This document shows positions 111 through 64,000 of a DNA stretch of 64,000 nucleotides, one piece after another (position 1 is the stretch's first letter; every line of letters begins with the position of its first letter). Below the pieces are notes generated by a model, which saw only the letters and a program-made list of their open reading frames with translations, ran no database searches and was not told the DNA's origin. A program made the position numbers and the translations under genes. The stretch comes from a virus, in IMG/VR virus record IMGVR_UViG_3300019132_000038; one strand, 5' to 3'.

Positions 111-134
111 TTTCACCAAATCCGCCGGAGGCGG
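111..134 (-). promoter_or_regulatory. GGA-triloop hairpin motif copy 1 (candidate phage RNAP promoter)
   Basis: TTTCACCAAAT-CCGCC-GGA-GGCGG on + strand, upstream of the minus-strand gene starting at 83. Confidence 0.55.
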
Positions 135-162
135 CTCCACTAACCAAAAGTTAGACGATCAT

Positions 163-1242: not shown

Positions 1243-1266
1243 TTCCACGAAATTTGCCGGAGGCTA
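1243..1266 (-). promoter_or_regulatory. GGA-triloop hairpin motif copy 2
   Basis: TTCCACGAAATTT-GCC-GGA-GGC between genes, ~20 nt upstream of ATG 1230. Confidence 0.45.
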
Positions 1267-1779
1267 TTACGTTAATGCAACTTCATACAAATCTTTTTTA
1301 CCTTTCAAGAGATATTCTGCTGAAGAATGAATAGCCACTAAACGATGTGGCTGATCACATGTAGTTTGGTTTTGCAGATGCACTTTATAAGACAAAACAC
1401 GTTCACTGTCCGTAAGGACAGCATAAATTTGTTGCCATAAATCTACATGTTGTGGAGGCTCTCCTTTCGTAGTGAGCCATCCTTGACGAACCCAGTTGTA
1501 CATATGTTTATTTAGACCGGTACTGACTTGTACAACAGATGTATAAATATGTACAAACACAGGTTTTTCTTTCTTCAATTGCAAGAGTCCATGTAAAATA
1601 GCCTGAAGCGTCATACGAGTTGGTGTCGTTCCTTTCGCATAACCACCAATGGTCTTTGTATAATGCTGACCTTGAATGCAGCAATGAAGATGAGAACACC
1701 AGCCACCGTTTCCTTCTTGGTCTGTTGTGCCGGCTACCCAAAGATTCACTTTTAATTTATCAAACTGAGCTTTACTCAT
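1267..1779 (-). CDS. RNase HI-like protein, catalytic acids absent
   Basis: Aligns by eye to RNase HI (GNGGW, TTPTRMTL, NWVRQGWLT, HVDLWQQI); probable start ATG 1779 with GAAGGAG RBS. Confidence 0.75.
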   Translation of the reverse strand: MSKAQFDKLKVNLWVAGTTDQEGNGGWCSHLHCCIQGQHYTKTIGGYAKGTTPTRMTLQAILHGLLQLKKEKPVFVHIYTSVVQVSTGLNKHMYNWVRQGWLTTKGEPPQHVDLWQQIYAVLTDSERVLSYKVHLQNQTTCDQPHRLVAIHSSAEYLLKGKKDLYEVALT

Positions 1780-1846
1780 AGATTTCACTCCTTCATTTGA
1801 ATAACAAAAAAAGCCCACACCAGAAGATGTGGACTTTATTTATGAT

Positions 1847-2186: not shown

Positions 2187-2732
2187 CTATATATAAAACG
2201 TATGAATATAACGATTAAAACGTTTGGCGTACTCAATACAGTTGGCAGTTCCGCCAGGTGTTCCATCCCAAAATGCGATCACACCTTGAACAGAATCTAC
2301 CATATATTCATTTCGAATTTGCAGTTTGTAATTGCTATGTACGCCAACAGGTGTATGGATATCTCGCATGTACAATGGTGTCTTATCCACATACGTCACC
2401 AAGTCTGCTAACTCTAACATACGAGAATACCAATACAAAATTTCTGGATTTCTCCATATTTTTGGTTGCTCTTTATACGGTACAGCAACAATATTCTTAA
2501 TATGAGGATAACGTTTCTTGAGTTGCTGTACCGTAAAAAAAGCAATTTGATCAAAGCCAATCGCTCCGCCAGACATAAATTTTGTTGCTCCCTGTTGAAT
2601 TTTTTCTTCTAAAATAGGAAGCAACAAATTTCTCACAGTATACACTCCTTCATTCTTCCAGGGATCATTCCAATCAAACCCTGGAATTTTATTAGGGCGA
2701 TGACCTGTGAAACACCAAGCATCTACAGACAT
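2187..2732 (-). CDS. DUF1273/YspA SLOG-family protein
   Basis: CFTGHRP, SGGAIGFDQ, RNEYMVD, WDGTPGGT motifs; start ATG 2732 with AGGAGG RBS. Confidence 0.85.
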   Translation of the reverse strand: MSVDAWCFTGHRPNKIPGFDWNDPWKNEGVYTVRNLLLPILEEKIQQGATKFMSGGAIGFDQIAFFTVQQLKKRYPHIKNIVAVPYKEQPKIWRNPEILYWYSRMLELADLVTYVDKTPLYMRDIHTPVGVHSNYKLQIRNEYMVDSVQGVIAFWDGTPGGTANCIEYAKRFNRYIHTFYI

Positions 2733-2756
2733 GCAAAATCCTCCTTGAGAGAATAT

Positions 2757-2780
2757 TTTCACCGAACCCGCCGGAGGCGG
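2757..2780 (-). promoter_or_regulatory. GGA-triloop hairpin motif copy 3
   Basis: TTTCACCGAAC-CCGCC-GGA-GGCGG, ~30 nt upstream of ATG 2732. Confidence 0.55.
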
Positions 2781-2789
2781 TCCCACTGG

Positions 2790-3251: not shown

Positions 3252-3275
3252 TTTCACCAAATTCGCCGGAGGCGA
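3252..3275 (-). promoter_or_regulatory. GGA-triloop hairpin motif copy 4
   Basis: TTTCACCAAAT-TCGCC-GGA-GGCGA, upstream of 2989..3219. Confidence 0.55.
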
Positions 3276-3753: not shown

Positions 3754-3777
3754 TTCCAACAAATCTGCCGGAGGCGA
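3754..3777 (-). promoter_or_regulatory. GGA-triloop hairpin motif copy 5
   Basis: TTCCAACAAATCT-GCC-GGA-GGCGA. Confidence 0.4.
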
Positions 3778-4363: not shown

Positions 4364-4732
4364 CTCAACTGATTAATTTGTGAACCGTTATTTAACTAGA
4401 GTGGCCGTCCTCTAGTGGAGTGGTTCTTCTCCATTCCTATTCGCCTATCCCCAAATAGGAAATCCCCCTGTTAGGGCAGGTCGCATACTATGCACAGCTT
4501 GTTTTTCTCGCTATCGTGCATATTTAGCCAGGGATATTTTCAGCCTGTTAAATAGCTACTAGGACACTCTTATGCCATTCCCTAAGAACCTTGCCTAAGC
4601 AATGAATACAGGGAATAGAGAGGAATCCGCTCGCAAAAATAAAACACATCACCTCCTTTCTGATGTGAACCACACCAATCAAAACAAGAAACACCTCTTG
4701 CACTCATTGCTAGGGTTCAAGCCATTCTTAAT

Positions 4733-4770
4733 AAAAAAAAGAAAAAAGAGGAGGGCAAAACGCCCTCCTA
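4733..4770 (-). terminator. intrinsic terminator after RNAP gene
   Basis: AGGAGGGC/GCCCTCCT stem plus long U-tract on the minus strand. Confidence 0.75.
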
Positions 4771-4771
4771 T

Positions 4772-7700
4772 TCATGAATAGCGAGTAACTGATTCCAAAT
4801 AGAACGTCAATGACTTCTTATTGACTTGAAAATCCTTTACTTTTGCAACAAATCTAGTTGCACCAGTAAAGAAAGTAACATACTCTGGATAAATCGAAGC
4901 TACACGTTGCTTCTTGACATACACTTCATGACGAAGATTGCCAAGTTCATCAGCTTGAACCATAACTGCAATATGATTAGCCCAATTTTGAATCATATTA
5001 GCAACCATCTCTGGCGTATAACCCGGAGTAAAGTTACCAATGTTCACTTTCGTAACCTCAAGTTGATCAAAACGAGTTACTTGAGGTTCTTTTAATTTTA
5101 AGTGTTCTGTTCCAGACACCTTACGTAAAGCTGCAACAAATTGATGTTTAGCTACAACCCAAGGGAAACTTAACCCACGAGCAGGCTCATCCACCGTTGC
5201 GCCACGCTTCGAAGCTGAAACAGAATAAGTCATCTGATAAGCAACCAAGCCAATATAAGCTGGATCAAATTGTTCTGAAAGAGCCATAAACTCTGCTTGA
5301 CACTTTTCAGTAATAAAGTTGAGCGAATCATCTAGATCACGCTTCAACTGATTAATATATTGTTCTTTGGCATAATCACTTGCAAAAGAAATAAACTCAA
5401 GTTGAGACATTTCGGTATCAAACTTACGATACGCATTCGAAATAGCCGTATTGTACATAGATTTAATCATGCGTACATTACTTAAAACGGCCATTTGTTC
5501 CACATGAGACTGTGGCACTTCAACCACAGTGGAAATCGCACTGAGAAGATTATTCTCTGCATATTCACTTCTCAACTTCTTAATATCAGCAATAAATTCT
5601 TGTTCTTCCCATTTCAACATATATTCATGAACACGAGAAAGAACAGAATCATTCTGAATACCATTTGACTTCCCTTTTAAATGAGCGAACCAAGATGGAC
5701 TTGCCCAAACATAACGACGTAATTTCTTATTGTACGTTGCAACTTCTGCTGGTGGATTTTCAATGAAAGAAAGTTCTTCTTTCAATGCTTCTTCATATGC
5801 ACCACCATGTTTTGCACGGTCAATTTCCCAAGACTGAACCCATGCAAGTAAATCAATAAGTTCTTGGAGTTCATTCACTCTCTTAATAATCGCTTTTGCT
5901 GCTGACATACTGCCAGCTTCATAATGAGAACGACCCTTATACCACAAAGCACGAACCGCATCAGCAAGTTTCGTAGCATAATCCGTTAACTCACCAATAC
6001 GGTTTGGCTTTAACGTTTCTGCTACATACTCTAAAGATATTTCATACATCTTTAACTGTAACTCACGAGTATATTGACTCTTTGTAAAAGTAAATTTATA
6101 CTTAGACATATCCACTGTACCCTTAAATGGGCAACCATTGTCGAAGAGAATCTGCCCATTCTCTTCCCAATAGTGGATATCTAAGAAAGCAGGAGCAGAT
6201 TTGCATGCTTCTTCAACCGCTGTGACCAATTCTGGTTGAGTCATGCACAGTGATGTATCACCATCACAATCTGCTCCACCTTGAGAAATAGTATTAAAGT
6301 CATGGCACGACATAATAATCATGCCATCAAAAGCATCTTTCTTCATATAGCGTGAATAAGCACGTGCTTCAAGAACACGAGATTGCCCCATAGTCATCTG
6401 CGGATTACGAGCAACAGCTAGTTTGCCAACATACACCACATGACCATCTTTCTCTAACATAAAGCACGTACCAGGTTTAATTCCTTTATTCGGATTCACA
6501 AAAAGTTTTCCATTTTTACGAATCTCTTGATCCGTGCCACGCAACTTATACGCATCTAAAATCGCATACGGATCCATAATGATAAAACGATAATTCGCTT
6601 CAACCGGAATTAAACCCGATTTCCACTCTTTAATCAACTCTTGTAATAAAGAAAGAGCCTTTTCTTTCAAGAAAACATCTTGGTAAGAGTTCGGCGCATA
6701 ATGTAAATAAAACGACAACAAAGAAACAAGAGTAGAATCTAACAATTCATCTTGTTCCTCTTCTGAATACTCTTCAAGTTGCAACAAACGATCATGCCCT
6801 AAATACTCCTTCATCAATTCTACATCATGAAGTAACAATTTTGCACGATCCAAATGAGGTTTTAAAAGTTTAATCATAGTATCGGCACTCAATTTCATAC
6901 CATGTATAAATTGATACGGTAAACTCACATATCTCTTTTTAAAGCGCATTGGTGCTCCAAAAAGAGCCACACGGAACTGCAATTGAATATCTTCAATTAC
7001 ATCTTCCAACGTATCTGTAGAAGCTTTGAATGAAGACATTGGAATCACAATATCTTCTTCAAAATACTTCTCTAAATCTGGAATATACACAGCATTGCCT
7101 TTTACAAAACCGTTAAACAAACGAACAACACCATTCTGAAAATGACGGCCAAACTCCGCTTCCGCTAAAGTCTTAATACGATTATTGAAATACATTTGAC
7201 CATCACCGGCTACTTGTTCAATAGGATGATCAGCCGCATCAAACACACGACTTTTCTTTGTATCTTTGCCAAAAGCTTTAAACTTACCTTGTGATACTTC
7301 TGAATAAACATCTTCGACAATACGAAGAGATACATTTCCGCCGAGAATAGAAATATCACCATTCTCGTGACGTACTACTTCTTTTCCAAAACGAATAAAG
7401 TTCGACTTAACACTATTCGAAAGCGTTAAGCCAAAACGTTTCATAGCTTTGACATAATCTAATTCATAAACAATCTCACCATTTTTATCTTGGCCCTTCA
7501 CCTTCGCAAAGGCTAAAGGATTCATACCAAGAATATTCAATACATCCACAGGATGAATAATATGCTCTGCCACACCAACTACTTGGACTTGACGTTCTTG
7601 AGAAGGAGAACGCAAAGCATAACGAACCATACGTTCTACACCTTCATAATCAATATAACTCATTCCTAATCGAATAATATTCATCGCCTTTGTAATATCC

Positions 7701-8251
7701 TCTTCTTTTAACGGTTTTAAATCAATGAAGAAAACGTGAGGCAATACATATGCATACACCTCACGTTCTATAACTTCACCATCAACTATCTTTCTAACTG
7801 TCACCATACGTGGACCATCAAAAATAAATGGAGACAACATCTCTGCTGCATAAGAACCAGAAATCTCTTTATATCCTGATTTCTTATCTTCACCAACGAA
7901 GAAAGAATCAGAATAATTGCGAGTAGAAATATAACGACCATCAACAAATTCGATCGTATCTAAGTCTGCTTGTGCTACAATAACACGAATATTCTTGATA
8001 CGACGAAGTTTCTTAGGAATTGGATGAGATTCCAAGAACTTCTTAAATACATGAGCTTGTTGTGGTGCAACACCTGCCAACTCTACAGGATTCTCTAATA
8101 CCTCCACTACATTTGCACCACTCGCAACCGCTTCCACAACTTTAGAAAAGTTTTTCGTACCAATTGCCGTTAAAGGCGAAAAAGAAGCCAAGCGTTCAAC
8201 CACTTGGCTCACAGACTGAATAGGATTTAATACATTTTTCACATTGTTCAT
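4772..8251 (-). CDS. single-subunit two-barrel RNA polymerase, YonO / cellular RdRP-like
   Basis: 1159 aa; motifs RLFNGFVKG, VARNPQM and catalytic QGGADCDGD (DxDGD) in the order found in the QDE-1/RdRP-YonO family. Confidence 0.85.
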   Translation of the reverse strand: MNNVKNVLNPIQSVSQVVERLASFSPLTAIGTKNFSKVVEAVASGANVVEVLENPVELAGVAPQQAHVFKKFLESHPIPKKLRRIKNIRVIVAQADLDTIEFVDGRYISTRNYSDSFFVGEDKKSGYKEISGSYAAEMLSPFIFDGPRMVTVRKIVDGEVIEREVYAYVLPHVFFIDLKPLKEEDITKAMNIIRLGMSYIDYEGVERMVRYALRSPSQERQVQVVGVAEHIIHPVDVLNILGMNPLAFAKVKGQDKNGEIVYELDYVKAMKRFGLTLSNSVKSNFIRFGKEVVRHENGDISILGGNVSLRIVEDVYSEVSQGKFKAFGKDTKKSRVFDAADHPIEQVAGDGQMYFNNRIKTLAEAEFGRHFQNGVVRLFNGFVKGNAVYIPDLEKYFEEDIVIPMSSFKASTDTLEDVIEDIQLQFRVALFGAPMRFKKRYVSLPYQFIHGMKLSADTMIKLLKPHLDRAKLLLHDVELMKEYLGHDRLLQLEEYSEEEQDELLDSTLVSLLSFYLHYAPNSYQDVFLKEKALSLLQELIKEWKSGLIPVEANYRFIIMDPYAILDAYKLRGTDQEIRKNGKLFVNPNKGIKPGTCFMLEKDGHVVYVGKLAVARNPQMTMGQSRVLEARAYSRYMKKDAFDGMIIMSCHDFNTISQGGADCDGDTSLCMTQPELVTAVEEACKSAPAFLDIHYWEENGQILFDNGCPFKGTVDMSKYKFTFTKSQYTRELQLKMYEISLEYVAETLKPNRIGELTDYATKLADAVRALWYKGRSHYEAGSMSAAKAIIKRVNELQELIDLLAWVQSWEIDRAKHGGAYEEALKEELSFIENPPAEVATYNKKLRRYVWASPSWFAHLKGKSNGIQNDSVLSRVHEYMLKWEEQEFIADIKKLRSEYAENNLLSAISTVVEVPQSHVEQMAVLSNVRMIKSMYNTAISNAYRKFDTEMSQLEFISFASDYAKEQYINQLKRDLDDSLNFITEKCQAEFMALSEQFDPAYIGLVAYQMTYSVSASKRGATVDEPARGLSFPWVVAKHQFVAALRKVSGTEHLKLKEPQVTRFDQLEVTKVNIGNFTPGYTPEMVANMIQNWANHIAVMVQADELGNLRHEVYVKKQRVASIYPEYVTFFTGATRFVAKVKDFQVNKKSLTFYLESVTRYS

Positions 8252-10982: not shown

Positions 10983-11012
10983 TGTTATAATAGTTTCATG
11001 TAATGCATTACA
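10983..11012 (+). promoter_or_regulatory. extended -10 promoter with palindromic operator
   Basis: TGTTATAAT (10983-10991) followed by the perfect palindrome TGTAATGCATTACA (10999-11012). Confidence 0.65.
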
Positions 11013-12945: not shown

Positions 12946-12974
12946 TTGAAATGCATTACAAGAAATAGTATATT
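12946..12974 (+). promoter_or_regulatory. sigmaA-type promoter overlapped by operator copy
   Basis: TTGAAA-17-TATATT; TGAAATGCATTACA at 12947-12960. Confidence 0.5.
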
Positions 12975-13320: not shown

Positions 13321-13395
13321 TGCCTAGTAGCTCAGTGGTAGAGCAATCGGCTGTTAACCGATCGGTCGCAGGTTCGAATCCTGCCTAGGCAGCCA
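13321..13395 (+). tRNA. trnN: tRNA-Asn (GTT)
   Basis: Acceptor stem TGCCTAG/CTAGGCA, D-arm with GGTAGAGC, anticodon arm ATCGG-CTGTTAA-CCGAT, GGTTCGAATCC T-arm, encoded CCA. Confidence 0.95.
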
Positions 13396-14505: not shown

Positions 14506-14541
14506 TTAGACATATTAGACAAATTAGACAGGATAGACAAA
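14506..14541 (+). repeat. four 9-bp direct repeats, parC-like centromere/operator
   Basis: TTAGACATA TTAGACAAA TTAGACAGG ATAGACAAA between promoter and RBS of the actin-like gene. Confidence 0.65.
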
Positions 14542-14558: not shown

Positions 14559-15746
14559 ATGATGCAAACTGAATATCGTGCTAAGCCAGGAAAAGCTTCC
14601 AAGAAGCAAGTAGAATCGATGCCTTTGTTGGTATCTATTGATGTAGGTTTTGGTGAATTGAAACGGTTATCCAATATCTTTCCGCACCCAGTAGCGATTC
14701 CAAGTGCAGTGGTTCCTGGGGCAAAACCAGCATCTAGTCGTTTATTTGAGCTTCAAACGATTGATGATGATAGTTTGATTGTCACAACAGAAGATGGAAC
14801 ATTCTTTGTTGGAAAGCAAGCCATGCATGTGCCAACAAGCGGAAGTAAGCGTACACAGGTGCGTGATCGTGCAAATGACATGATGAGTCGTGTACTATTC
14901 CAAACAGGCATTGCGTTAAGTGTTCCACATGAAGATGGAGAGTACAAGGTATTTGTTGTAACAGGGCTACCAAATGATGATTACGATTTATCCGTGAAAA
15001 AGAATCTAGAAGAATTCTTGCATCGCTCTTTTGTTGTGCAATTCCATCTTAGTGAAACACGCACGATTACAAAAACCATTCATGTGGTTGGAGTTGAAAT
15101 TTTACGTCAGCCGGAAGGTTCGGTGACTTATAATCAGTTTGATTTTGATGTAGAACGCTTCCTAGTTCCAAGTCCAAATGCTCGTCGCACATTAGGTATT
15201 ATTGATTTTGGTCATTTTACGACAGATTACGCTTTATTCCGTGATGGTATTTTGATTGAAGATGCAACCATCAATGGGTCTGCTGTAGGAGTGACGGAGG
15301 TTTATAATAAGCTGCGTCGTCGTCTTATTGTAAAATTTGATGAAATGGGATATGAATACCGTCCAACGGATGAAGATTTGGATATGGCGGTGCGTACGCA
15401 TAAGATTCATTATATGAATCAGGAGTTTGATGTATCTAAGGAAGTCCAAGAAAGTGCTAAAGAAGTGGCAGCCATTATTGCAAAAGAAGTATTGGATGCA
15501 TGGGGGAACGAGACAAATCGATTGGAATCTATTATCGTTTCCGGTGGCGGCTCTCACGTCTTTTCGAATTACTTGTTAGAGGAGTTTAAGATTCGTAAAA
15601 AACAAGGTTTCCATGTGATTGATGCACCACAATTTAGTAATGTCATTGGATTCTATATGTACGGTTGCATTGCGTTATCTGATGAATATTCATCTGAAGC
15701 ACTCTTTAGTGAATATATTAATCCAGTATTTGTGGAGGCTTTATAA
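14559..15746 (+). CDS. ParM/StbA-family actin-like ATPase
   Basis: SIDVGFGELK, QPEG, IIDFGHFTTD, VSGGGS actin-fold motifs. Confidence 0.9.
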   Translation: MMQTEYRAKPGKASKKQVESMPLLVSIDVGFGELKRLSNIFPHPVAIPSAVVPGAKPASSRLFELQTIDDDSLIVTTEDGTFFVGKQAMHVPTSGSKRTQVRDRANDMMSRVLFQTGIALSVPHEDGEYKVFVVTGLPNDDYDLSVKKNLEEFLHRSFVVQFHLSETRTITKTIHVVGVEILRQPEGSVTYNQFDFDVERFLVPSPNARRTLGIIDFGHFTTDYALFRDGILIEDATINGSAVGVTEVYNKLRRRLIVKFDEMGYEYRPTDEDLDMAVRTHKIHYMNQEFDVSKEVQESAKEVAAIIAKEVLDAWGNETNRLESIIVSGGGSHVFSNYLLEEFKIRKKQGFHVIDAPQFSNVIGFYMYGCIALSDEYSSEALFSEYINPVFVEAL

Positions 15747-15934
15747 TGGCAAAGGATAGATTATACGCTCGAATTCGGGAAGACGACGTAATCATTCGAG
15801 AGCATTTTGCCAATATTAAGCCGAGTGACCATCCATATGAAATTAGAAGATTATTAGAAAAAGCGATACTGATTGAAAGAAAAGAGAAGGAAATACTTGA
15901 AAAAGTGGAAATTCGCATAGGGCAGGACTCATAA
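15746..15934 (+). CDS. ParR-like small DNA-binding adaptor (RHH-like)
   Basis: 62 aa, TAATG-coupled to the actin gene; N-terminal beta-strand (RLYARIR) then helices. Confidence 0.55.
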   Translation: MAKDRLYARIREDDVIIREHFANIKPSDHPYEIRRLLEKAILIERKEKEILEKVEIRIGQDS

Positions 15935-16866: not shown

Positions 16867-17358
16867 ATGAGACAGGCATTTAGAAACGCCTTTTATCGTT
16901 CAGTCTTGAATCGGGCGACTCCCTATCAAAAAACCGACTTAAAAGAAAATGCGAAAGAGCTAAAAACGCACTTCAGAGAAATAGGAGAAACCGTCCGAAA
17001 TCATGTCAGAGATAATTATAACCCCAAAGATCCTTTCTTTATGAAAGATCCTCAAGGACGCAACATTAATAACTTATGGACCGGATACAAGCTCGGTGGA
17101 AAAGGAAATTTACTAGCTGCAGGAAGCATCTTAGGTGGAGGTACAATTATCGCCACCAATCCACGTCATTATCAATCTTTGTATAATCAAGCATATTACA
17201 TTCCAGCCATGAGCGAAGAATTGGATGTAGAATCATTGCCTTCTACACGAGCGGATGGAGTAGGATATCAAGCAGCAATAGGAAACAATCCTATGTTAAC
17301 TACATCAGGTGATTTGGTGTTTGCGATGCACAAAACTCGTCATACCGGTCAATTTTAA
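16867..17358 (+). CDS. hypothetical protein with Gly-rich hydrophobic segment
   Basis: 163 aa, AAGGAGG RBS. Confidence 0.75.
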   Translation: MRQAFRNAFYRSVLNRATPYQKTDLKENAKELKTHFREIGETVRNHVRDNYNPKDPFFMKDPQGRNINNLWTGYKLGGKGNLLAAGSILGGGTIIATNPRHYQSLYNQAYYIPAMSEELDVESLPSTRADGVGYQAAIGNNPMLTTSGDLVFAMHKTRHTGQF

Positions 17359-17371
17359 AGGAGGTGTATAA

Positions 17372-17812
17372 ATGGCAGGAGTTCAGCAATCACCTAACAA
17401 TGCCGAAGGCCGTATTCATGAATTAAATAAAAAGGGGATTCGATTAGGTGGCGGTCTATTAAACTACGGTTTTATTGGTTTGGATACGGCTTTGCGAATG
17501 AAGGAAGGAGAATCCGCTCCTGTGGCAGTAGGGAAAGCTCTCTTAACCAATGCAGCTTTATCATTGCTTCCGGGTGGTTTACCGGCTGCACTAGGAGTTA
17601 TGGCTGTTGCCTCTGCTCCGGAATTGATGAATCAACTGGACCAAGCTGCCGGAGCTATAAATGCAAAGAAACGTCAATTTGGTGGGAACTTTCAAGAATC
17701 GGAATCTCAATTACGGATGATGCAACAGGGGTTATCTCGCATGCAAAATGCTCGGATGCATGCCGTTCGAAAAATGGCCAATCATGCAAGAGGAGCACAA
17801 AAGGTGTATTAG
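17372..17812 (+). CDS. hypothetical protein with Gly/Ala-rich hydrophobic helices
   Basis: 146 aa, AGGAGG RBS. Confidence 0.75.
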   Translation: MAGVQQSPNNAEGRIHELNKKGIRLGGGLLNYGFIGLDTALRMKEGESAPVAVGKALLTNAALSLLPGGLPAALGVMAVASAPELMNQLDQAAGAINAKKRQFGGNFQESESQLRMMQQGLSRMQNARMHAVRKMANHARGAQKVY

Positions 17813-17830
17813 AAGGAGAGGTGAAAAGAA

Positions 17831-18439
17831 ATGGCAGTTGCAAGCAATGAGCCTTATCAGCGAGTGTCACGAGATAATGGTGTCTTTGATGGAATGTTTA
17901 TTGGCATGGCGGTTGCAGCAGGTGGAGCTAGTGCAGGTGTCTTTGGTGCTCGTATGAATTATAACGGCATTGATAAATCTGTGCAAGCAGCACAAGGCCG
18001 AATTAATGCAGGGCTAGAGGCACTTAGTAGTCGGGAGCAAAAGGCATTAGAACGATATGATAATAAGATTGATCGCATCATTAACCGAGAGCGCACAGCA
18101 GGTGTGACCGGTAATGTAAATTCTCGTTTAGAGAGACGTAATCAAAAGAAATTAATGAACAATCCAAATATAGTAAATTTATATAATAAGTATTTTGTAG
18201 AGAAGCCTCTTAATCGATTAGAAAGAAATCATCAAAAGACAATGGAACGAATTCGAACGGATTTTAATCGACTGGTTGAACAAAATGCTCATTTTGAAGA
18301 TCCTTCATATATCAATAATCAAAAAGCCAATCATATTTATCGCAAGCATATGGGCGGTTGGAAGAATGCCGCTATTATTGGAGCGAGTGCTGTGATTGGT
18401 GGTGGTATTGGCATGATTACAGACGCATTGATGGAATAA
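17831..18439 (+). CDS. Gly-zipper paralog 1 (SNxPxQR N-terminus)
   Basis: MAVASNEPYQRV; two Gly-rich hydrophobic segments. Confidence 0.75.
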   Translation: MAVASNEPYQRVSRDNGVFDGMFIGMAVAAGGASAGVFGARMNYNGIDKSVQAAQGRINAGLEALSSREQKALERYDNKIDRIINRERTAGVTGNVNSRLERRNQKKLMNNPNIVNLYNKYFVEKPLNRLERNHQKTMERIRTDFNRLVEQNAHFEDPSYINNQKANHIYRKHMGGWKNAAIIGASAVIGGGIGMITDALME

Positions 18440-18454
18440 TTTAAAGAGGGGTGA

Positions 18455-18862: not shown

Positions 18863-18875
18863 GGAGGGATCATAT

Positions 18876-19298: not shown

Positions 19299-19310
19299 TG
19301 GGTGATTTGG

Positions 19311-24603: not shown

Positions 24604-24632
24604 TGTAATGCATTACAAGAATCATGTATAAT
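24604..24632 (+). promoter_or_regulatory. palindromic operator plus -10 upstream of portal
   Basis: TGTAATGCATTACA (24604-24617), TATAAT (24627-24632). Confidence 0.55.
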
Positions 24633-38135: not shown

Positions 38136-38151
38136 AAGTGATGTGGAGTCG

Positions 38152-39442: not shown

Positions 39443-39498
39443 CTCCCTATAATGCTCACCACACTATTCGAAACATCATAAGGAGAGTGACTTCATTT

Positions 39499-50020: not shown

Positions 50021-50045
50021 TATAATATTATTGTAAAGCATTACA
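50021..50045 (+). promoter_or_regulatory. -10 box plus operator copy
   Basis: TATAAT (50021-26), TGTAAAGCATTACA (50032-45). Confidence 0.5.
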
Positions 50046-51382: not shown

Positions 51383-51555
51383 TGTTTCCATTTTGGCAAT
51401 GTATTCAGACCATTCGATTCGACCCACGAGTGAATCGGTCTTACGGAGATGGACAATGGTGCATTCAAGAATGTTGGGCTATTTATTTTCGTAGACGTAT
51501 CGAATTGTTAGAGTTAGACAAGGAGGAGTTCTCTCATGGAAGAAGTACGATTTGA
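51382..51555 (+). CDS. small hypothetical protein (57 aa)
   Basis: TAATG overlap with the previous stop and overlap with the next start; not in ORF track. Confidence 0.4.
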   Translation: MFPFWQCIQTIRFDPRVNRSYGDGQWCIQECWAIYFRRRIELLELDKEEFSHGRSTI

Positions 51556-54500
51556 AGAATATATGGGACGAGAAAGGCAAACCACTCGCTTTTTCCATGA
51601 TGAGAAGGAGCGGGAACAATTGCCTTTAATTGCAGAAGTGGGAATAGGTCTTGCAGCAGTTGCCGGACTCCTTGCAGCTGGGCATCGAACTGGTGTCATT
51701 CGTCGTATTGCTCAGTTTCTCGATATAGAAGCCAAAGCTACCGTTCGAGCGGTTCGGGAAACAATGGATCAGCAGGGAAGTTGGTTTCGGGGAACTGATA
51801 AACTAACCGCTAGACGGATGAAAATATTAAAAGAAAGTTTTATCAATCGGAGAAAAGAAATCCTTCAGGATCTTAAAAAAGGCTCCAAAGATATCCTCTT
51901 AAAAAGAGAAATGGATATGGAGCGGTATTTGAATCAACGCAGACAACTCATTGGAAAAATTCGAAATATGGGACAATACGAAGGGGAAGTACCTTATCAT
52001 ATTCAAGAAGGATTTCGTTTCGCAGCAGTAATGGATGATATTCGTCAGAACTCTCAATTGCCTACCGAGGCGATTCAAGAATTAGAAAAAGCATTAGCAA
52101 AAGGGCGTAATGGAATCCTTGATTATGGGTCAGATGATCAATTGCGTTTACTGTTGCAAAAACATGGAAAAGGCCTCAATACAGATGAGGTTTGGAAAGC
52201 ATTAAAGACAGCTAGAGAGAAATACCGGGGCAAAGATTTTATTGCTGAAAATCCAGATGCTCGCCGACTCGTAGAAGGAATGCAAGAAAAATTAAGAGAG
52301 TTTACAGCCCTTCAAATGCAAAATATTACGAAAAAAGATCATCTACTTAAACAAATGCGAATTGGACATAAGCAAGCTACTGTCGGCGATATTTTGCGTT
52401 TAGAAGAAGCTGGTAAAATTCGAATGAATGCCGATTTAAAAGCACAAATTCAAGAAGTCTTGCGTTATAACAAGGATTTCAAAAAAGCAATTTTTGATGA
52501 GAATCTCTATATTTCTACTAAAAATGATGAACTAATAGATTATAAGGTATTTAGTGATATCCGAAGGAGAACAGCAGAATGGTGGGCTAATACAATCCCT
52601 GGTGGTCTGTTGCACTTGCGGGATATCTTAAATGTAAAAACCGCCCGAGAACAAGCAAGTTTTCGTATTTTTGAAAGAGGAACCATTCAAGCTTCTTTGA
52701 ATGCCCATCGAGGATTTGAAATTACTGAACCTCTAAATGAAGAAGTTATCTTTGTGAATGGTAAATTTGTAAAGCTCTTTGACTATGATGCAATTAATAA
52801 TAATGCTCCCTTAGAAATCTTGAATCCAAAGCGAGACATGTTCCTAACATCTTCTCAGTTTGGTTCAATGGGAAAAATGCATCGTCATATGTCAGGACTT
52901 ATGACAGATAACGAATCTCCTCGGAATATTATATCTTCTTTCTTTGATATCGGACGACAAGATAAAGATAGTGTCTTTATCCAAGGTGTGAGTGTCTTTA
53001 CGAAGTTTTTTAAAGACGATTGGGAACGAAATAAAATGAAATCATTCATTAAATACGGGATTAATACCCCAGAGGATTTTTTTGAATTGAACACATATTT
53101 CCGATTGAATACAAAAGGGTTTAGTGCACGGTTATTAAATAATTTAAGAGGACACTTGCCTCGATCTATAGAGGAATTTATTGAAAGGGAAAACGTTAAT
53201 TTTTCAAGACAGGAAGATATCTTAAAACTATTTAGTCATATCGGTGAGAAGGAAATCAAGCGAAAGGGTAGCCCTTATACGGAGCTTGTCACATTGTATC
53301 GACAATATCGTCGCAATCCAGATGCCGTATTAAATCGAAAAACGCCTGTTGGAGAAAGTAATCCGATTTTAGGGCACCATACTCATATTCAGACTGGATA
53401 TGATGTGATTCATCAGCAAACCAGCTTATATCTCTTGCAAGAAATGTTGATGGCTCGGCCGGGAAAAGGGATTTATATAGACCTTGCCAATCAGTTTCGA
53501 AGAGAACTGCAAGGATTGTATTACGACGGTAAAATTTTTAAAGATGAGTTACAAAAAGCAGAAGAACTATTAAATTACAGTATGTTTCGTTCTCAAGGGT
53601 TTGATTTTTTCGAGAATCGAAATGCAGCTTTAAATCGTGTTAGTTACTTATTCCAACATAATGAAGAATTCCAGGATGCAATGAGAAAAATGGTTCGGCG
53701 CACTAACCCAATGTGGGAACGCTTCTCGGAAATTCGTCCAATTAACCAAGTGGAAGATGAATATGTAGCTATTAGTAAATCAAATATAGGAGGCATTTTT
53801 AATCGTATTATCGGATTAAATTCAAGTCTTAAAGAGCGAGCACAAGCAGCAGGAGAATTGTTCCGTCAATGGAGTCCATTTACAGGACGACGCAATATGG
53901 AAGATGTCACTCCATTTACCCTGTTTGGTGTGTATTATCCAGTATATCGCTTACAAGATGCACTCGGTAATGCAGGATTAGGATTTTCCGATCAATCAAT
54001 GGGAAATACCTTCCAAATGTTTTCTGCTCTTATGTGGAAGCGAATTTTCCCGGTGTATGGTACCGTAGAAGGCATAAAGTATATGGATTGGAAAATGGAT
54101 CAATGGACAGGAGAAGGTCTTGATGAGCGATGGGAAAACTATAAAGCACAATATCGTTTAGAGAAAGCATTGGAGCGAACACCGGAAGAAATCTATCAAC
54201 TTAAACGGGAGCGAATGCTTCGACCAGGTATTGAACATTGGGAAGCTATGCCGGATGTTCACATTCCGGGAATCGGCCCTGTTGGAGCAGGAGATTTCTT
54301 AAATTTATTGTTTGCTCCGTTGATGGGTTATGCTCCTCTTCGAGAAGAAGATATGATGACTTACGATGAAACTCTCCATGATTTGTATTACGGAACGGAA
54401 GAAATCCGAAAATCCCGTTGGTGGCTCTTTGGTTCCAAGTCAGCATATCGTGGAGATCGGATTATTGAATTTGCTCCAAATTCGTTCCGTTTAGCACATA

Positions 54501-55717
54501 GCGATTATGAATGGACAAATACAAATGCAACCGGAGAAGAATACTGGAGTCATCATTTATTACCGACACTCGAAAATCCATTAGGAGGATTATCTTATCT
54601 TTTCGGACTTCGTGACCCATATTGGTGGGAGCGAAAACATTACTATGATCGTCCGTATTTATTAACAGGCGAATTGTTCAACCCGAACACGATGGTGTTA
54701 GGAGATATCGGCAATGCAACAATCGGACGACTCATTAAACCAGTGCAGGAAATGCATCCGGAATATTGGAGTGATCCAATCCTTATTTATGAAAATGAAA
54801 CACAGTATTTAGGGGATCGGCCAACAGAACCGGTTCGAACTCGAATTTCTCCCGGAGGTCGAATTGAACATGATGTTCTTGCCACTCCTGCACAGTATGG
54901 AGTAACAGAGGGGATTCAGAAAATCGAAGTCGTAGATGAGGATGGAGAAGAAATCAGAGTAATGAATCCTGAAATTCTAACAAGAGGATCAAACGCAAGA
55001 TATGTGATGACTCTTGAACTGGACGATGAAGGAAAAACAACAGGAGGATATGTGGCCACTGATTTGGAAGCCAATGAAAGTATTTATGTCCCTGCTAATA
55101 TTGCACAAGAATTGACACTGGAAGAAGCATTCCGATATGCCGAAACAGAAAACCCACAGGGAACTCAAGTCAAAGCGGTGACGATTTCTACTCATAATCC
55201 AAGCTATCAAACATTAGTTAGCACTCAGCCACGAGCCATGATGGATGAAGAATTTGCCTATCATCAAGACATTTTGTATCGAAAAATGGTGAACATTCAA
55301 GATCCACGAGATGGATCATGGAGATTGAGAGAAGGTTTTGAAAACTGGACAGAACCATTAGGTGTGTATAAATGGATTTTAGGAGACGAGTTGATTGGAT
55401 ACGACCCATATAAAGGTCAATCGGTTATTCAGCGAGCCGATGTAGCCTACAATGCATCCAATCGTTTCTGGGAATCCGAATTAGGTTCTCTTGGTTCTCA
55501 GTTGTCTGAGATTGGTCGTCGTTTTATTCGGCGGGATAGCTCACAATTAGAGAAATATAATCCTATTCGGAACACTATGCCAGACTGGTTGCCAGGAGAT
55601 AACTATTTTATTAATTTCCAAGTAGGAGATCCATACTCAAAGATTCCAAATGGAGAACGACGTTTACCGGGAGAGGCATATGAAGCTTTGCATGAACTTC
55701 ATCCAGATGAGACTGGT
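51536..55717 (+). CDS. giant virion protein (tape-measure position), exon 1
   Basis: 1394 codons to the U splice site; follows tail chaperones; spliced product ~2008 aa. Confidence 0.75.
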
Positions 55718-56923
55718 AAAATATTTGCCTGTCTATAAACATGGCACGAATTGCTGGAAACCCCTTAGAGCCTTGCGAGCTACAACGGAACCGGTAACGG
55801 TAAACGTGAATGCTTGAAAATCGCAAGGATTGGGCAATCAGCAGCCAAGCATCTCTGGAAACGGAGATGAAGGTTCAGAGACTATCGAAAGCTCCTACTA
55901 TATCTCACCCTGACGAAACATGATATAATGGAGCAAGTAGAGTTATTTTACAGTGATGTAAAATAACGGCGTGCCATTAATTGCAAGGAGGATGTGTATA
56001 ATGAAGTCATTGCATCAAAATAAAGAATGGTTAGAAGAACAGTATTCAAAGTATGGGACATCAACAATAGCAAAAATGGTCGGAAGAAATGATAAAACAA
56101 TACAATATTGGTTGAAAAAGTTTAATATACCAATGCGAACAAGAAGTGAATCAATGAAAATAACCGAAAATCGCATTCATACTGTTGATGTCGATTATTT
56201 TAAAGAAATTGATACGGAAGAGAAAGCATACTTTTTAGGTTTTCTTATGGCTGATGCGAATTTATCAATCAGAACTGATAATAAACATGTAGAAACAAAA
56301 AGCATAGATTTGACCATTCATAAAAGTGATGTTGAAATATTGATCAAATTAAAAAATGCAATTAAATGTAGCAATGAAATTAAACCAAAAGGAAACAATA
56401 TGAGATTAGCAATATATAATACACACTTTGCTGATAACTTGATTCATTGGGGTATTGCTGCAAATAAAACAGGGCATGAAGTTTTTCCAAATATATCCGA
56501 ACATTTAAAGCACCATTTTTTAAGAGGATACTTTGATGGTGATGGATGTATTACTTGGAGTAAAAACGGGAGACTTCGAGGTAAAGTTCATTTTGTTAGC
56601 GGATATGAAATGATGAAAGGTATTAAAGATTTTATTGAGAGCAAAGGTGTACAGTATACAGATAAATCATTGCATCCTAAAAAGGGAGCAAATGCTTTTG
56701 AATTAGAAACAGCTACATTGCCAAATATAGCAAGAATATATGACATAATCTATAAAGATGCTACTGTTTTTTTAACCAGAAAGAAAAAACATTTTGATGC
56801 ATTTATGGAGCAATATATTAATTCTCCTATTGCAATTAAAAGATATAGTCCGACCTTATACCGAAAGGTATAAGAGGCAAGCAGAAATGACTTGCCCCTC
56901 CTTTATTGGAGAGTAACAATGTG
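55718..56923 (+). mobile_element. group I intron 3 (1206 nt) with homing endonuclease
   Basis: GAATTGCTGGAA, AATCAGCAGCCAAG, GGTTCAGAGACTA, AAGATATAGTCC; IGS GCCTGTC (55727-33) vs exon GACTGGT; terminal G; splicing gives PDETG|KYGAFDK. Confidence 0.9.
56001..56873 (+). CDS. LAGLIDADG homing endonuclease
   Basis: AYFLGFLMADA and HFLRGYFDGDG; AAGGAGG RBS before ATG 56001; lies between the R and S elements (P8 loop) and reads through S. Confidence 0.9.
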   Translation: MKSLHQNKEWLEEQYSKYGTSTIAKMVGRNDKTIQYWLKKFNIPMRTRSESMKITENRIHTVDVDYFKEIDTEEKAYFLGFLMADANLSIRTDNKHVETKSIDLTIHKSDVEILIKLKNAIKCSNEIKPKGNNMRLAIYNTHFADNLIHWGIAANKTGHEVFPNISEHLKHHFLRGYFDGDGCITWSKNGRLRGKVHFVSGYEMMKGIKDFIESKGVQYTDKSLHPKKGANAFELETATLPNIARIYDIIYKDATVFLTRKKKHFDAFMEQYINSPIAIKRYSPTLYRKV

Positions 56924-61700: not shown

Positions 61701-64000
61701 TGCCTTTGATTAATCAGGCCGGCACACATAAAGTAGGAGGCTTGGTATTAAATGCACATAATATAGCTGTTCGAGAAGGAAAAAATATCGAGTTAATTTC
61801 AAGTGCCCAACATATTGCACGAGGATATGCTGATAGAATGGGATCTATTATGAAGGTATTCAATGAAGGAGATATAGAATGGGCCAATACACTCGCACGA
61901 CGTACTCTTCGTAATCAAATTGAAAGCATGTCAGGAATCCAGAGAAATATGGAATTCGGAGAAAACGACACATATGTATGGGCGCAAAATCAGTCCGACA
62001 TGTTAAAACAAGCACACGTCAAGCTAGGTAATGCTATGGTAGAAGATTTGTTTTACAACGGCTTTGAAGGTGTGCGACTAACAGAAAAAGATTTCTACGA
62101 TCCGGATGATGTGTTTATAGATGACGGACATGGAAACCGAATCTTGCGCAAGGGTGTAACTTTAGAAGATGTAAAAATGGAAACCAGCCACAAGATGCTG
62201 ATGCTCATGCCTAAATGGGCAGAGGAACGGTTAAAGATTCCTTTATTTACATCTTCTGTGAAAGCTGAGCACGTATCCAAAGCGATTTTATCAATGGAGG
62301 ACATTCGCCAACTGATTCCTTATGGTACATTTTACAATCACGGCCGTGATAACGCTGTACAATATATGAATGCTTATCTAATTAACTCTCAAACAGAAGA
62401 ACGTTTAAGAAATATTAAAGGAGTCAGTCGGGATAGTTTATTGAAAACTCCTCGCCAACTAGAATATGAGTCTATTCAGCCTAACAAAGTCAGCATGAAT
62501 ATGAGAATTGCTTATATGACGCAAGATGAACTACGTAAACGTGTAGAACAAATGATAAAAGATTCAAGAGGGCAACAACTTCTTTCCGAATTAGGATTTT
62601 TAGATGAGACAGGAAAACTTCAGTATGAAAAACTACCACGACTGTATGAGCAGCAGGGCATTATTGCTAAAGATTTAATGGATGCGTTAGAAGTCAATAA
62701 TGAAAAGCGATATGACAAAGGAAAACGATTTGAATTAGAAAAAGGGTTGCAAATAGGTAGCACTATTCAACCAGGTCAGTTATTAGGATACCGAATCCAT
62801 GATAATGGATACCGAGAAGCTATACGTTATGAAGGCACCAAAGTAGCCCAGCTTATTGATGGTGTGGAAGAAGGACGAGATTTAATTGTACGTTGGCAAA
62901 CCCAACCATTTAAATTTATGCTTGACGGCGAAAAAATGACCGATTCCCCCGTAGATCGTCGATTTATTGAATATCTTACTGGTCGAAATGACATTGTAGG
63001 GATTATTAACCCAGATGTGGCGAAACACCACGACTTTGGAATGTTAATGTCGGGGGAAGCTAGATTGCTAGCTGAAGAAATTAAAAAACTAAGCCCATCC
63101 AAACAAAAAACCGCTAGAAAAATTATTGAAAATGGTGGTATTGGGCTCAAGTGGAATCAAGAAATGGGCGGGTTCATTGATCATAGTTTTGATTTGCAAA
63201 TTGCTCGGGAACAATTTGATAAAGTATTTGAGCAACTCAACAAAGCCAAAATTCGTATTTCTCCAATAACTCCAACAGGATTGCGTATGGGTATTTTAGA
63301 AGGCCGTATGTCCAAAGTAGCCAATTATAGTAAAGTGATCGACCACAACGGAAGGCAAGTGATTGGCTATGAAGAAGGATATAATGCTGAAACTGGCGAA
63401 TACGAAGTTCGTAAAGTATATGCAGATGGCAGAGATGGAGTACAATGGGGACACCGAGAGATGGGGGTACTAAAGAGCTATGGGTTAGAGAAAACCTATC
63501 AACATGTTCATCAAATTATGTTGGAACAAGCTCAGCAAACTCATCGTCTCCAAGAAACTAGAGCCGTTGCTGAATCATTGCGATATCTGACACATGAGGA
63601 TCGTATTCAAACAGAGGCATTGAACATAGAAGACTTTGACTCTCTTCCAGAAATGTATCGTAGTGAGAATACGTACAAAGGAACGATTTTTGATCGTGAA
63701 AAAGTAAAAAGTTTAGTAAGCCAGTATAAAAATCATAATGCCATGAATGAGCATGGTTTCTGGCTAGAATTGCCTTCAGTAAAACGTCCTGATGGTAAGC
63801 TCGATAAAGTTACGATCCGCATGGACGAGACAGGGACATTAAAAGAAATTGATAAAATCTTTATTCCATTTACGAAACTGGAAGGGGCACATGGCGATAT
63901 CCATTTGCGGGATTTGCAAAAACAAATTGCTCGTATTTATGAAAAAGCGGAAGAAGTGCAACGAGCAACCAGTCTTCAAGATGCACGAATGGCCCATCAA
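58784..64000 (+). CDS. giant DEDDh exonuclease / RNA polymerase beta-beta'-like fusion protein, 5' part
   Basis: GGGAG RBS and ATG 58784; no stop in the segments I translated, and its absence from the track fits a frame with no stop codon in the window; FDIET / YNGLVFD / AHNAQID exonuclease motifs, then ordered beta-like motifs incl. GVQWGHREMGVLKSYG. Confidence 0.75.
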   Translation, partial: MNEPWNQTPEDIRVNIVLPKSKDLKVVAVSDPVYYQDRTDPEYEKRITRHIDFLNRQSAILERDKNSLALEMQELMRKKETIIYDGQRVYRLFHSLNQRHNQQTLELFEEFYRSLKNNQNHYIFDIETFGDVHDRQKPYSISEISINEFDRQGNLVRKGYNTVLRQDQKTVDYLQQLIDDIRKDKYAYNRLEDWEKRSLVDLMRYASYMSEYDEHAFSHNLKTQEIQHHSIIKSVFDHQDQVHHGKVLRNIDQYLLYMQSGLDYLKKHGTPVQTALKQIEKLFQENADRFFLTYNGLVFDWPVLKAFAEKHGVTLSSIKHLDYLNAIRTVFSDSDVLKRRINPDFQRSAYSKDKLAAMRQALNLETQDEAHNAQIDTHDTAKVIAATYEHLHQEIQNSKFPIREGFNYHPTYLTWNDEPLRHGQKLFAIGGAMAVQDGDESFRVTLDENGKWVPVTNDFNKTVINSKTFYEFAGMQKLEEGQLAFRFFDPDRNEYAYIVRSGEHAFQELQDFVQSRFYNWDGLDPQYQRDILHAAEADRARRRYQRFFSMDGAGKGLAIIDGEIVEKGTAGFSGLKRMIANAEIMKTHLESKGAQYRAKVEELIAQGMSRNQAKREARKIRAHQLPNHLDFESLWDESRQKYVINEAERKQFFKMYKRLIDELPYLKEVVETIDQEFAEEIQQAAAIKDNRKRRRALMEINQKRDQALMNYYRYMTDAVGEPEQERTLKEFENRRLAFYDPEVDDYRTLDFTTVKSARDSLYQYARRGTKESRNQQKVMKERLDFLFRNLQTQHIITPGQYSYYSDVLWNTDSVWHAAGEIAINMRQRNNGKYETTLTEPSMIQNQNIQQLTKEQNRQFIQRAIEDTRNAQLIINMDSATGKKLILGEEIRKTLEILDQQRFSRLEPKNYEALEELIASIRKTDRTKQIALVMDTHSNDGLMKAYVYNGKDSITVRNQLARGTTPTQALEIVMPLINQAGTHKVGGLVLNAHNIAVREGKNIELISSAQHIARGYADRMGSIMKVFNEGDIEWANTLARRTLRNQIESMSGIQRNMEFGENDTYVWAQNQSDMLKQAHVKLGNAMVEDLFYNGFEGVRLTEKDFYDPDDVFIDDGHGNRILRKGVTLEDVKMETSHKMLMLMPKWAEERLKIPLFTSSVKAEHVSKAILSMEDIRQLIPYGTFYNHGRDNAVQYMNAYLINSQTEERLRNIKGVSRDSLLKTPRQLEYESIQPNKVSMNMRIAYMTQDELRKRVEQMIKDSRGQQLLSELGFLDETGKLQYEKLPRLYEQQGIIAKDLMDALEVNNEKRYDKGKRFELEKGLQIGSTIQPGQLLGYRIHDNGYREAIRYEGTKVAQLIDGVEEGRDLIVRWQTQPFKFMLDGEKMTDSPVDRRFIEYLTGRNDIVGIINPDVAKHHDFGMLMSGEARLLAEEIKKLSPSKQKTARKIIENGGIGLKWNQEMGGFIDHSFDLQIAREQFDKVFEQLNKAKIRISPITPTGLRMGILEGRMSKVANYSKVIDHNGRQVIGYEEGYNAETGEYEVRKVYADGRDGVQWGHREMGVLKSYGLEKTYQHVHQIMLEQAQQTHRLQETRAVAESLRYLTHEDRIQTEALNIEDFDSLPEMYRSENTYKGTIFDREKVKSLVSQYKNHNAMNEHGFWLELPSVKRPDGKLDKVTIRMDETGTLKEIDKIFIPFTKLEGAHGDIHLRDLQKQIARIYEKAEEVQRATSLQDARMAHQ

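Follow-up and report, generated by a model that had tools for sequence, protein, structure and literature searches.

Hairpin motif arrays and two predicted RNA polymerases in a family of jumbo phage-plasmids

The window analyzed here is a stretch of 64,000 nucleotides, bases 9417–73416 and hence the left third, of the 215,870-bp virus record IMGVR_UViG_3300019132_000038, which derives from biocrust metagenome assemblies, is rated 100% complete by CheckV and has ends overlapping by ~60 nt. Coordinates are window positions unless marked as genome positions or prefixed with L or W. The genome is divided into a rightward arm of ~139 kb, carrying the virion genes and others, and a leftward arm of ~77 kb, wrapping over the record ends and carrying replication and nucleotide genes; the two diverge at about window position 10,800. 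On these arms lie an array of hairpin motifs, a gene for a single-chain RNA polymerase (RNAP) resembling YonO of phage SPbeta, a giant tail-module gene predicted to encode a second RNAP, host-type promoters sharing one operator, and a partition cassette. A preliminary description had joined such elements into a host-independent program, in which an injected virion RNAP reads early genes from the hairpins and the YonO-like enzyme reads the late genes. The inventory is here confirmed and enlarged, but the proposed wiring appears only partly right, and the hairpins are assigned, with somewhat better than even confidence, to the YonO-like enzyme. The features on which the argument turns are the following (aa, amino acids; ORF, open reading frame).

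111..134, minus strand: hairpin motif CCGCC-TCC-GGCGG followed by ATTTGGTGAAAA, upstream of a 73-aa ORF
1243..1266, minus strand: hairpin motif with imperfect stem, 7 nt past the preceding stop codon, the next ATG following after 30 nt
2757..2780, minus strand: hairpin motif, apparently driving the YpsA/SLOG gene
3252..3275, minus strand: hairpin motif
3754..3777, minus strand: hairpin motif with imperfect stem
4730..4771, minus strand: strong intrinsic terminator GGAGGGC-GTTTT-GCCCTCC with T-run, read from the sequence, directly 3' of the YonO-like gene
4772..8251, minus strand: YonO-like single-chain two-barrel RNAP, 1159 aa, monocistronic
10999..11012, no strand assigned: operator TGTAATGCATTACA, preceded by TGTTATAAT, where the rightward arm has its first promoter
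12947..12960, no strand assigned: operator copy with one mismatch
24604..24617, no strand assigned: operator at the portal-operon promoter
50032..50045, no strand assigned: operator at the promoter of the tail-chaperone/tape-measure/giant-RNAP operon
58775 (GTG) or 58784 (ATG)..65689, plus strand: giant 2304-aa protein, overrunning the window end (64000) by 1.7 kb

Hairpin arrays, polymerase genes and operators

The nearest named phages are distant, the tail sheath being 33% identical to that of Bacillus phage 0305phi8-36 and of Moorella phage MTATph1. Most core genes of the phage are common to four full-size plasmids (205–260 kb), namely B. licheniformis pSCDB14 (W01, NZ_CP014843), a B. thuringiensis plasmid (W02, NZ_CP097261), a P. 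urinalis plasmid (W03, NZ_CP118109), and a P. rhizovicinus plasmid (W04, NZ_CP048288), and the YonO-like gene and the partition ATPase ParM are likewise found in all four. The hairpin motif, of which five copies lie in the window versus 0.00 expected by chance, is present genome-wide in 15 copies when the stem is relaxed, all on the leftward (minus-strand) arm and all in the direction of transcription, over 77 kb, with the consensus N3CC-TCC-GGN3'-(A/G)TTTGGTGAAAA. In these 15 copies taken together with 11 from the B. thuringiensis plasmid, 94.6% of the stem cells are paired versus 66.8% after shuffling, and double-sided stem changes number 33 versus 9 in the shuffles, none of 500 of which reaches the observed level; the pairing is lost when one stem partner is shifted by 1–3 columns. 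This is good evidence that stem pairing is under selection, the covariation being one of paralogous, not orthologous, sites. The template-strand hairpins that the preliminary description had placed on the YonO-like arm are thereby borne out, in 15 copies rather than five. Many copies start 7–24 nt past the previous stop codon, with the loop 30–59 nt ahead of the next start codon, and the genes downstream encode the beta clamp, a DnaG-type primase, an AAA ATPase, a PIF1-like helicase, a single-stranded DNA-binding protein (SSB), and the SLOG protein. To judge from these sequences, the hairpin-driven genes are of the replication or middle class. The gene for the phage SSB (L072:9261-10013, genome 207261-208013) stands directly behind a hairpin motif. 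In phage N4, it is the SSB that activates the hairpin promoters, and by analogy the phage SSB may be regarded as a candidate cofactor at those described here.

All relatives possess a lineage-specific array of the same architecture, strand-specific and always on the arm with the YonO-like gene, for which the coding-strand loop, the sequence after the stem, and the copy number are as follows.

This phage: loop TCC, then ATTTGGTGAAAA, 15 copies
W02, B. thuringiensis plasmid: loop TCC, then aTGTnTnTGAA, 11 copies
W01, B. licheniformis pSCDB14: loop ATCC, then gTTnnnnTGA, at least 6 copies
W03, P. urinalis plasmid: loop TAAC, then gGGGCTTTtTGA, 5 copies
W04, P. rhizovicinus plasmid: loop T(G/A)TC, then cATTCnnTnTGA, 8 copies
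0305phi8-36: loop TCGC (within CGT-TCGC-ACG), then tgTTtTGTA, ~19 copies

On the template strand, these loops read GGA, GGAT, GTTA, GACA/GATA, and GCGA, with G first in all and A last in all but one, and it is the G...A class of loop that makes the early-promoter hairpin of N4 unusually stable (PMC4496689). In the RNA sense (UCC, AUCC, UAAC, UGUC, UCGC), they belong to no known stable class. Because the template loops are N4-like and the RNA loops lie outside the stable classes, a DNA-level hairpin of the template strand, and thus a promoter, is favored, and the motifs are best read as template-strand DNA hairpin promoters. As in N4-type promoters, the template hairpin has a short stem, and a C:G pair closes its G(G/A)A triloop; the other N4 attributes, a T7-like reader and a small number of copies at the end of the genome that is first to enter, are not those of the present array. 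A search of the genome for a T7-like RNAP (PF00940) gave no match, though the positive control of that search stayed silent too.

The YonO-like protein matches the Pfam RdRP (RNA-dependent RNA polymerase) family PF05183 (34.8 bits, cut-off 23.8; E 1e-8) and bears the catalytic signature RNP, at position 615, followed by GADCDGD, which substantiates the earlier claim of such an enzyme. It is only 29–31% identical to its counterparts in the related plasmids versus 60–80% for neighboring core genes, and this fast divergence parallels the lineage-specific loops of the hairpins. A conserved block, TTTTTCTATACATTT(T)ATAxGxxxCCGTTTC, is found upstream of the gene in W01 (~10180-10230) and W02 (~102200-102260), not in the present genome, and may serve to regulate the polymerase gene. 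The YonO enzyme of SPbeta transcribes late genes, from a promoter stated to be undefined (PMC5467207); the published primers for SPbeta YonO have no match in the SPbetaL2 locus, and a link between YonO and hairpin promoters was not found in the literature searched.

The giant protein consists of a DEDDh exonuclease domain (aa ~100–400), a beta-like module (aa ~960–1590), a beta'-like module, and a hydrophobic C-terminus. Since searches against Pfam, PHROGs, and PDB sequences gave no RNAP match, only a weak one to RNase_H_2, its identification as an RNAP is based on motifs and fold. The beta'-like signature RYPTFH...NADSDGD occupies aa 1832–1874 (RYP 1832–1834; NADSDGD 1868–1874, the codons of which sit ~380 nt past the window end), and R1832, P1834, D1870, D1872, G1873, and D1874 are invariant in 25 homologues with identities down to 18%, as are K1163, N1193, Q1196, E1292, E1386, K1387, and T1389 of the upstream half. 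Candidates for the basic residues of the beta barrel are the near-invariant K1380 and the invariant K1387 in FKFMLDGEK, the match to Rpb2/beta being one at region level. An AlphaFold (AF2) model of aa 960–2140, computed from the 25-homologue alignment, has a predicted local distance difference test score (pLDDT) of 87 and a predicted template modeling score (pTM) of 0.83. The best 50 of at least 500 Foldseek matches to this model (E ≤ 0.001) are all Rpb1/beta' or Rpb2/beta, with probability 1.0; in the VIA comparison, model residues 1–630 align with Rpb2/beta at Z 15–17.6 over 420–470 residues, with the beta-like subunits of phiKZ and AR9 among the matches, and with Rpb2 itself at Z 17.6 and a root-mean-square deviation of 4.3 Å over 422 residues. 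In the exonuclease domain, D128, E130, N298, F302, D303, H374, and D379, which make up the DEDDh set (Exo I DxE, Exo II NxxxFD, Exo III HxxxxD), are invariant in 21 homologues, and the domain profile matches the exonuclease domains of family-B DNA polymerases and TREX2. According to motifs and model, the giant protein is a single-chain beta-beta' two-barrel RNAP with a DEDDh exonuclease, RNA synthesis itself being predicted. Public records label it merely "hypothetical" or "RNase H-like"; a proofreading-type exonuclease joined to fused beta and beta' in one chain, encoded in a tail module, would be an unreported RNAP architecture.

The gene for the giant RNAP follows a tail-chaperone pair and a 1400-aa protein in the tape-measure position, and precedes a 2147-aa (hub) protein with a lysozyme-like domain and the baseplate genes, an order kept in pSCDB14. 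Its positional counterpart in 0305phi8-36 is gp146, which has been detected in virions by mass spectrometry; as homologues of the giant RNAP, gp145-147 of that phage are ruled out, having neither similarity nor a DxDGD motif. Of the putative virion RNAP announced in the preliminary description, the RNAP fold, the motifs, and the position in the tail module hold, whereas its virion status is interpretation only: from the gene order, we infer packaging of the enzyme in virions. T-rich TTTTTATTTTTT tracts were considered as its promoter and set aside, as they do not form a consistent motif.

The operator TGTAATGCATTACA is a 14-bp palindrome located 0–7 nt past TGnTATAAT -10 boxes. The window holds five copies where chance would give 0.38. 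At two mismatches or fewer, the whole genome has 31, on both arms; the promoters so equipped include those of the portal operon, of the tail-chaperone/tape-measure/giant-RNAP operon, and of many later virion operons. Each of five related plasmids (GC 35–50%) contains 24–38 copies, and lytic 0305phi8-36 contains one. The operator is most simply understood as the site of one global regulator of the plasmid state, which would bind it; the operator-bearing sigmaA promoters of the preliminary description are thus present in greater number than it had noted, with control by a repressor as the conjectural part. Candidate regulators, kept in all operator-bearing relatives, are a RemA-like protein of 104 aa, a MerR-like one of 93 aa, and two winged-helix proteins of 136 and 328 aa (L069:3865-4179, L072:6661-6942, L072:5729-6139, L071:3185-4171). 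A sigma factor was not found in the genome.

Assignment of polymerases to promoters

Throughout the clade, hairpins, YonO-like gene, and giant RNAP always go together, and because the three are inseparable there, it is the outgroup 0305phi8-36 that decides between the two enzymes. This phage has a hairpin array and a YonO-like gene, orf99, and no giant RNAP, and apart from orf99, no ORF in it shows the [RK]xP...DxDxD signature in a plausible context. Very probably, the array is what Hardies et al. listed as 14 "21-bp promoter candidates" and provisionally attributed to orf99 (PMC2147016). The retention of hairpins and YonO-like enzyme without the giant RNAP makes the hairpins more likely promoters of the YonO-like enzyme, which we favor, on sequence grounds, as their reader with a little more than even probability. 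The giant RNAP appears a doubtful reader, and the remaining probability falls to a role at the RNA level or to host RNAP acting with a factor. The preliminary description had named, as a refutation of its model, related genomes in which giant RNAP and hairpin motif are not linked; the two go together within the clade, but in this outgroup they come apart, which counts against the model by its own test. A reduced 140-kb B. cereus relative, pG9842_140 (NC_011774.1), has the virion arm, ParM, and 24 operators, with the giant-RNAP gene (34720-40053) truncated before the catalytic motif, the entire replication/YonO arm gone, and no hairpins; it is of no use for discriminating between the polymerases, since it lacks not only the YonO-like gene but the whole arm.

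In the predicted transcription program, to which we give an even chance, three polymerases would share the genome. The host sigmaA RNAP would use ~30 extended -10 promoters on both arms, each with TGTAATGCATTACA at the start site, and one element-encoded regulator would probably bind this site and silence most operons in the plasmid state. The YonO-like RNAP, supplied from its own monocistronic gene, would initiate at the 15 hairpin promoters of the leftward arm, as suggested by 0305phi8-36, each promoter comprising the 5-bp co-varying stem, the C:G-closed template triloop 5'-GGA-3', and ATTTGGTGAAAA, and transcription probably beginning ~11 nt past the loop; the motif and its pairing are observed, and the promoters would drive the replication and nucleotide genes. 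The giant RNAP, co-expressed with the tail genes, would probably be borne in the tail and injected to serve pre-early genes, packaging and role both being suppositions. The explanation as a whole, which includes a temperate jumbo myovirus whose family resides in its hosts as low-copy plasmids partitioned by ParMRC, seems to us as probable as its negation.

It may be supposed instead, much as in the preliminary description, that an injected giant RNAP reads the hairpins as early promoters, that late virion genes fall to the YonO-like enzyme, following SPbeta, and that host RNAP is confined to the plasmid state. The hairpin geometry and the C-GGA-G loop would suit such a reader, as they fit the promoters of the N4 virion RNAP (PMC4496689), the SPbeta enzyme provides the precedent for late genes (PMC5467207), and none of the four full-size relatives lacks the giant RNAP, the YonO-like gene, or the hairpins. 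We nevertheless hold this arrangement to be unlikely: the array of 0305phi8-36 stands beside a YonO-like gene with no giant RNAP, the hairpin-driven replication genes span 77 kb and are not a handful at one end, and the virion operons bear sigmaA-type promoters with operators, no phage-specific promoter motif having been found on the structural arm. Host-type promoters with operators, 31 in number, head operons on both arms, those for portal and tail included, and contradict the label "host-independent". Nor need the hairpin act in DNA; transcripts of host RNAP could carry it as a translational operator, an antitermination signal, or a 5' untranslated region element for processing or stabilization, as would suit the many copies that lie inside operons at the distances from stop and start codons given above, and the single copies that, in two genomes, lie directly downstream of a sigmaA promoter with operator. 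Covariation alone cannot separate DNA from RNA pairing; the loops are of no known stable class in RNA, but in template DNA are G...A loops closed by C:G, like those of N4 (PMC4496689), a conserved block of 10–12 nt that keeps a constant distance and terminates in TGA or TGTA is what a start region typically shows, and the motif varies by lineage in the manner of phage RNAP promoters, all of which renders a function in RNA very unlikely.

For the giant exonuclease-RNAP, the question is whether it enters the host with the DNA at all, since it might work as an enzyme inside the cell, for instance in priming or in maintaining the plasmid, or form part of the tail structure while retaining a polymerase fold. 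A fused 3'-5' exonuclease is without precedent for a transcriptase, and pG9842_140 retains the truncated copy that lacks the catalytic motif; the catalytic residues of both exonuclease and RNAP are, however, invariant across ~40 clusters, its gene keeps its place among the tail genes, behind a late-type promoter, and gp96 of phage P23-45 offers a precedent for injection (PMC10770324), so that we consider a non-injected protein distinctly unlikely. Several points weigh against the three-polymerase program that we prefer. The assignment of the hairpins to the YonO-like enzyme hangs on one distant outgroup, 0305phi8-36, and the hairpin could act in RNA. In this genome, the region upstream of the YonO-like gene contains neither hairpin nor operator, and the promoter of the gene is not evident. 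The virion role of the giant RNAP is deduced from gene position alone, gp146 having no detectable similarity to it, and a second phage-specific promoter motif, cognate to this enzyme, was sought and not found. The operator-binding protein is not pinned to any of the candidate DNA-binding proteins. RNA runs holding the phage sequence were looked for and none was found, the four sequencing runs that hold it all being of metagenome DNA, so that the readings of the motifs are sequence-based.

More generally, and tentatively, YonO-type RNAPs as a class may recognize template-strand G...A hairpins, and an undescribed family of ~2300-aa exonuclease-beta-beta' RNAPs may be delivered through the tail by temperate jumbo phage-plasmids to start infection; we would not put this double proposal at even odds. 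If it is true, hairpin recognition has arisen convergently with the unrelated N4 virion RNAP, and the missing promoter definition of YonO is supplied. The hairpin arrays of the six genomes provide concrete candidate templates for that undefined promoter. The most valuable outcomes are the new exonuclease-beta-beta' RNAP family in the tail module, as a structural model, and the hairpin arrays that track the YonO-like enzyme in six genomes.

Phage-plasmid lifestyle and other genes of the window

Homologues of the giant protein, ~2300 aa in length, form ~30–40 sequence clusters on contigs of 190–225 kb from Priestia, Bacillus, Paenibacillus, and Virgibacillus. A giant-RNAP homologue is encoded by 10 PLSDB plasmids of 140–260 kb, which is why a phage-plasmid lifestyle fits. 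Among 50,697 phage records, tblastn with the YonO-like protein and the giant RNAP core gave no match, and megablast with 20 kb against phage records returned only tRNA-sized fragments; an IMG/VR pattern scan with the giant protein found nothing. At the level of the family, a complete virion module, maintenance genes, and an extrachromosomal replicon are found, and no match to a tyrosine integrase (PF00589) was obtained in the present genome. That the family consists of phage-plasmids of Bacillaceae and Paenibacillaceae is well supported, and for this metagenomic record itself we infer the plasmid state. The partitioning phage-plasmid of the preliminary description agrees with the 10 plasmids and with the occurrence of ParM in all four relatives checked, and its ParMRC cassette is present as a promoter, four TTAGACA iterons, an actin-like ATPase, and a coupled 62-aa ORF, the last a putative adaptor. 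The iterons are lineage-specific, each of five relatives having its own set. Cultured strains of B. licheniformis, B. thuringiensis, and Paenibacillus harbor relatives, which makes the system experimentally tractable. The remaining features of the window are listed below.

1267..1818, minus strand: RNase H-like protein (Pfam RNase_H, E 1.8e-6)
2187..2786, minus strand: YpsA/SLOG-family protein, behind the hairpin motif at 2757-2780
13321..13395, plus strand: tRNA-Asn
14506..14539, plus strand: parC-like iterons, 4 x T(T/A)AGACA spaced at 9 bp, flanked by the promoter and the ribosome-binding site of parM
14559..15746, plus strand: ParM/Alp7A-like actin ATPase (ALP_N 1.9e-20, MreB-like_C 1.2e-15, phrog_691 partition protein 5e-49)
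15746..15934, plus strand: ParR-like adaptor candidate, 62 aa, translationally coupled, conserved in 5 relatives, with no family match
16867..19715, plus strand: six small Gly-rich hydrophobic proteins, four with an N-terminal SNxPxQR peptide
19727..23086, plus strand: large terminase, split by a group I intron
20843-21127: group I intron in the terminase (Rfam RF00028, 86.9 bits)
21410-22240: intron endonuclease ORF (phrog_4645)
24695..26854, plus strand: portal protein
29451..30536, plus strand: major capsid protein
44765..47689, plus strand: tail sheath
51536..55738, plus strand: tape-measure-position protein, 1400 aa, homologous to 0305phi8-36 gp145 (29% identity)

The Gly-rich proteins, which have no informative family match, had been proposed as candidate ejected Gly-zipper proteins; they exist and recur in the relatives with their SNxPxQR N-terminus, but nothing shows their ejection. 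Beside the terminase genes, an N-terminal SN(E/R/Q)P(Y/V/M)QRV peptide is kept from Bacillus to Paenibacillus elements (W01:843-1628, W02:91440-91850, W03:42295-42642) and might be a cleavage or targeting signal. A sequence similar to the terminase intron (GGTCGGTGGGTGAA...) is located outside the window, upstream of the gene at genome position 145046. At the Rfam gathering score, the GC-rich structured non-coding stretches at 9660-10080 and 12980-13985 match no family, the tRNA-Asn alone being recognized. The other giant ORFs encode fiber-type proteins with Ig and PA14 domains. Just left of the window (L002:4993-6861, genome coordinates) lies the gene for a 622-aa SNF2-family helicase, among the best-conserved of the non-structural arm, with 77–80% identity in three Bacillus plasmids and 55–59% in two Paenibacillus plasmids, and present in pG9842_140 and 0305phi8-36 too; the helicase could be a transcription cofactor of the phage RNAPs.

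Comparison with known transcription programs

The closest program is that of the Thermus phage P23-45, in which the two-barrel RNAP gp96, a tape-measure fusion, enters by injection and transcribes the pre-early genes, among them that of a second RNAP; this non-virion two-barrel enzyme, gp64, reads early and middle genes, and host RNAP reads the late genes (PMC10770324). In both phages, a two-barrel RNAP forms part of a giant tail-module protein, the early arm encodes another two-barrel RNAP that is single-chain and not of the virion, later genes are left to host RNAP, and promoter motifs specific to the phage occur, the present program being read from the genes alone. The tail-module enzyme described here differs in being multisubunit beta-beta'-like, with Rpb1 and Rpb2 as top fold matches, in carrying a DEDDh exonuclease, and in being a separate ORF after the gene in the tape-measure position instead of a tape-measure fusion; moreover, the second enzyme is of the RdRP/YonO type, unrelated to the first and not its paralogue, and the phage is a temperate myovirus and a plasmid. 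In the list given in PMC10770324, the viruses with two RNAPs are phiKZ-like Bacillus phages only. With N4, the hairpins share the template-strand location, the 5-bp stem, the 5'-GGA-3' triloop closed by C:G, the GC-rich heptamer centered on the loop, and a T-rich spacer ahead of a G start (PMC4496689). However, the N4 enzyme is T7-like, a kind that the search with the silent control did not find here, and N4 has three promoters at one genome end, whereas 15 are distributed here over 77 kb and would drive replication genes.

Phage 0305phi8-36 resembles the present phage in encoding its YonO-like RNAP on the non-structural arm, from a monocistronic gene (PMC2147016), and in having a strand-specific motif array, which proved to be a co-varying hairpin followed by TTTTGTA; it differs in having neither the giant RNAP nor a ParM match, in not having been found as a plasmid, and in the loop TCGC versus TCC. 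In SPbeta, YonO is likewise a single-chain RdRP-like DNA-dependent RNAP (PMC5467207), and many dispersed operator copies (SPBRE) serve one master repressor, MrpR (PMC10516654); SPbeta differs, however, in integrating into the chromosome, in that its YonO reads one late operon from an undefined promoter, and in having no second RNAP. As regards lifestyle, pBtic235, a circular jumbo prophage-plasmid of B. thuringiensis israelensis that is inducible and plaque-forming (PMC9700832), is also an extrachromosomal jumbo temperate phage of the B. cereus group, likened here by lifestyle; it is absent among the plasmid matches to the giant RNAP. If the giant RNAP is packaged, the present element would be a temperate, plasmid-resident jumbo phage in which host RNAP under a global operator is joined by two phage RNAPs, one of them injected. 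To our knowledge, multi-polymerase programs have so far been known from lytic phages, namely N4, phiKZ/AR9, and P23-45.

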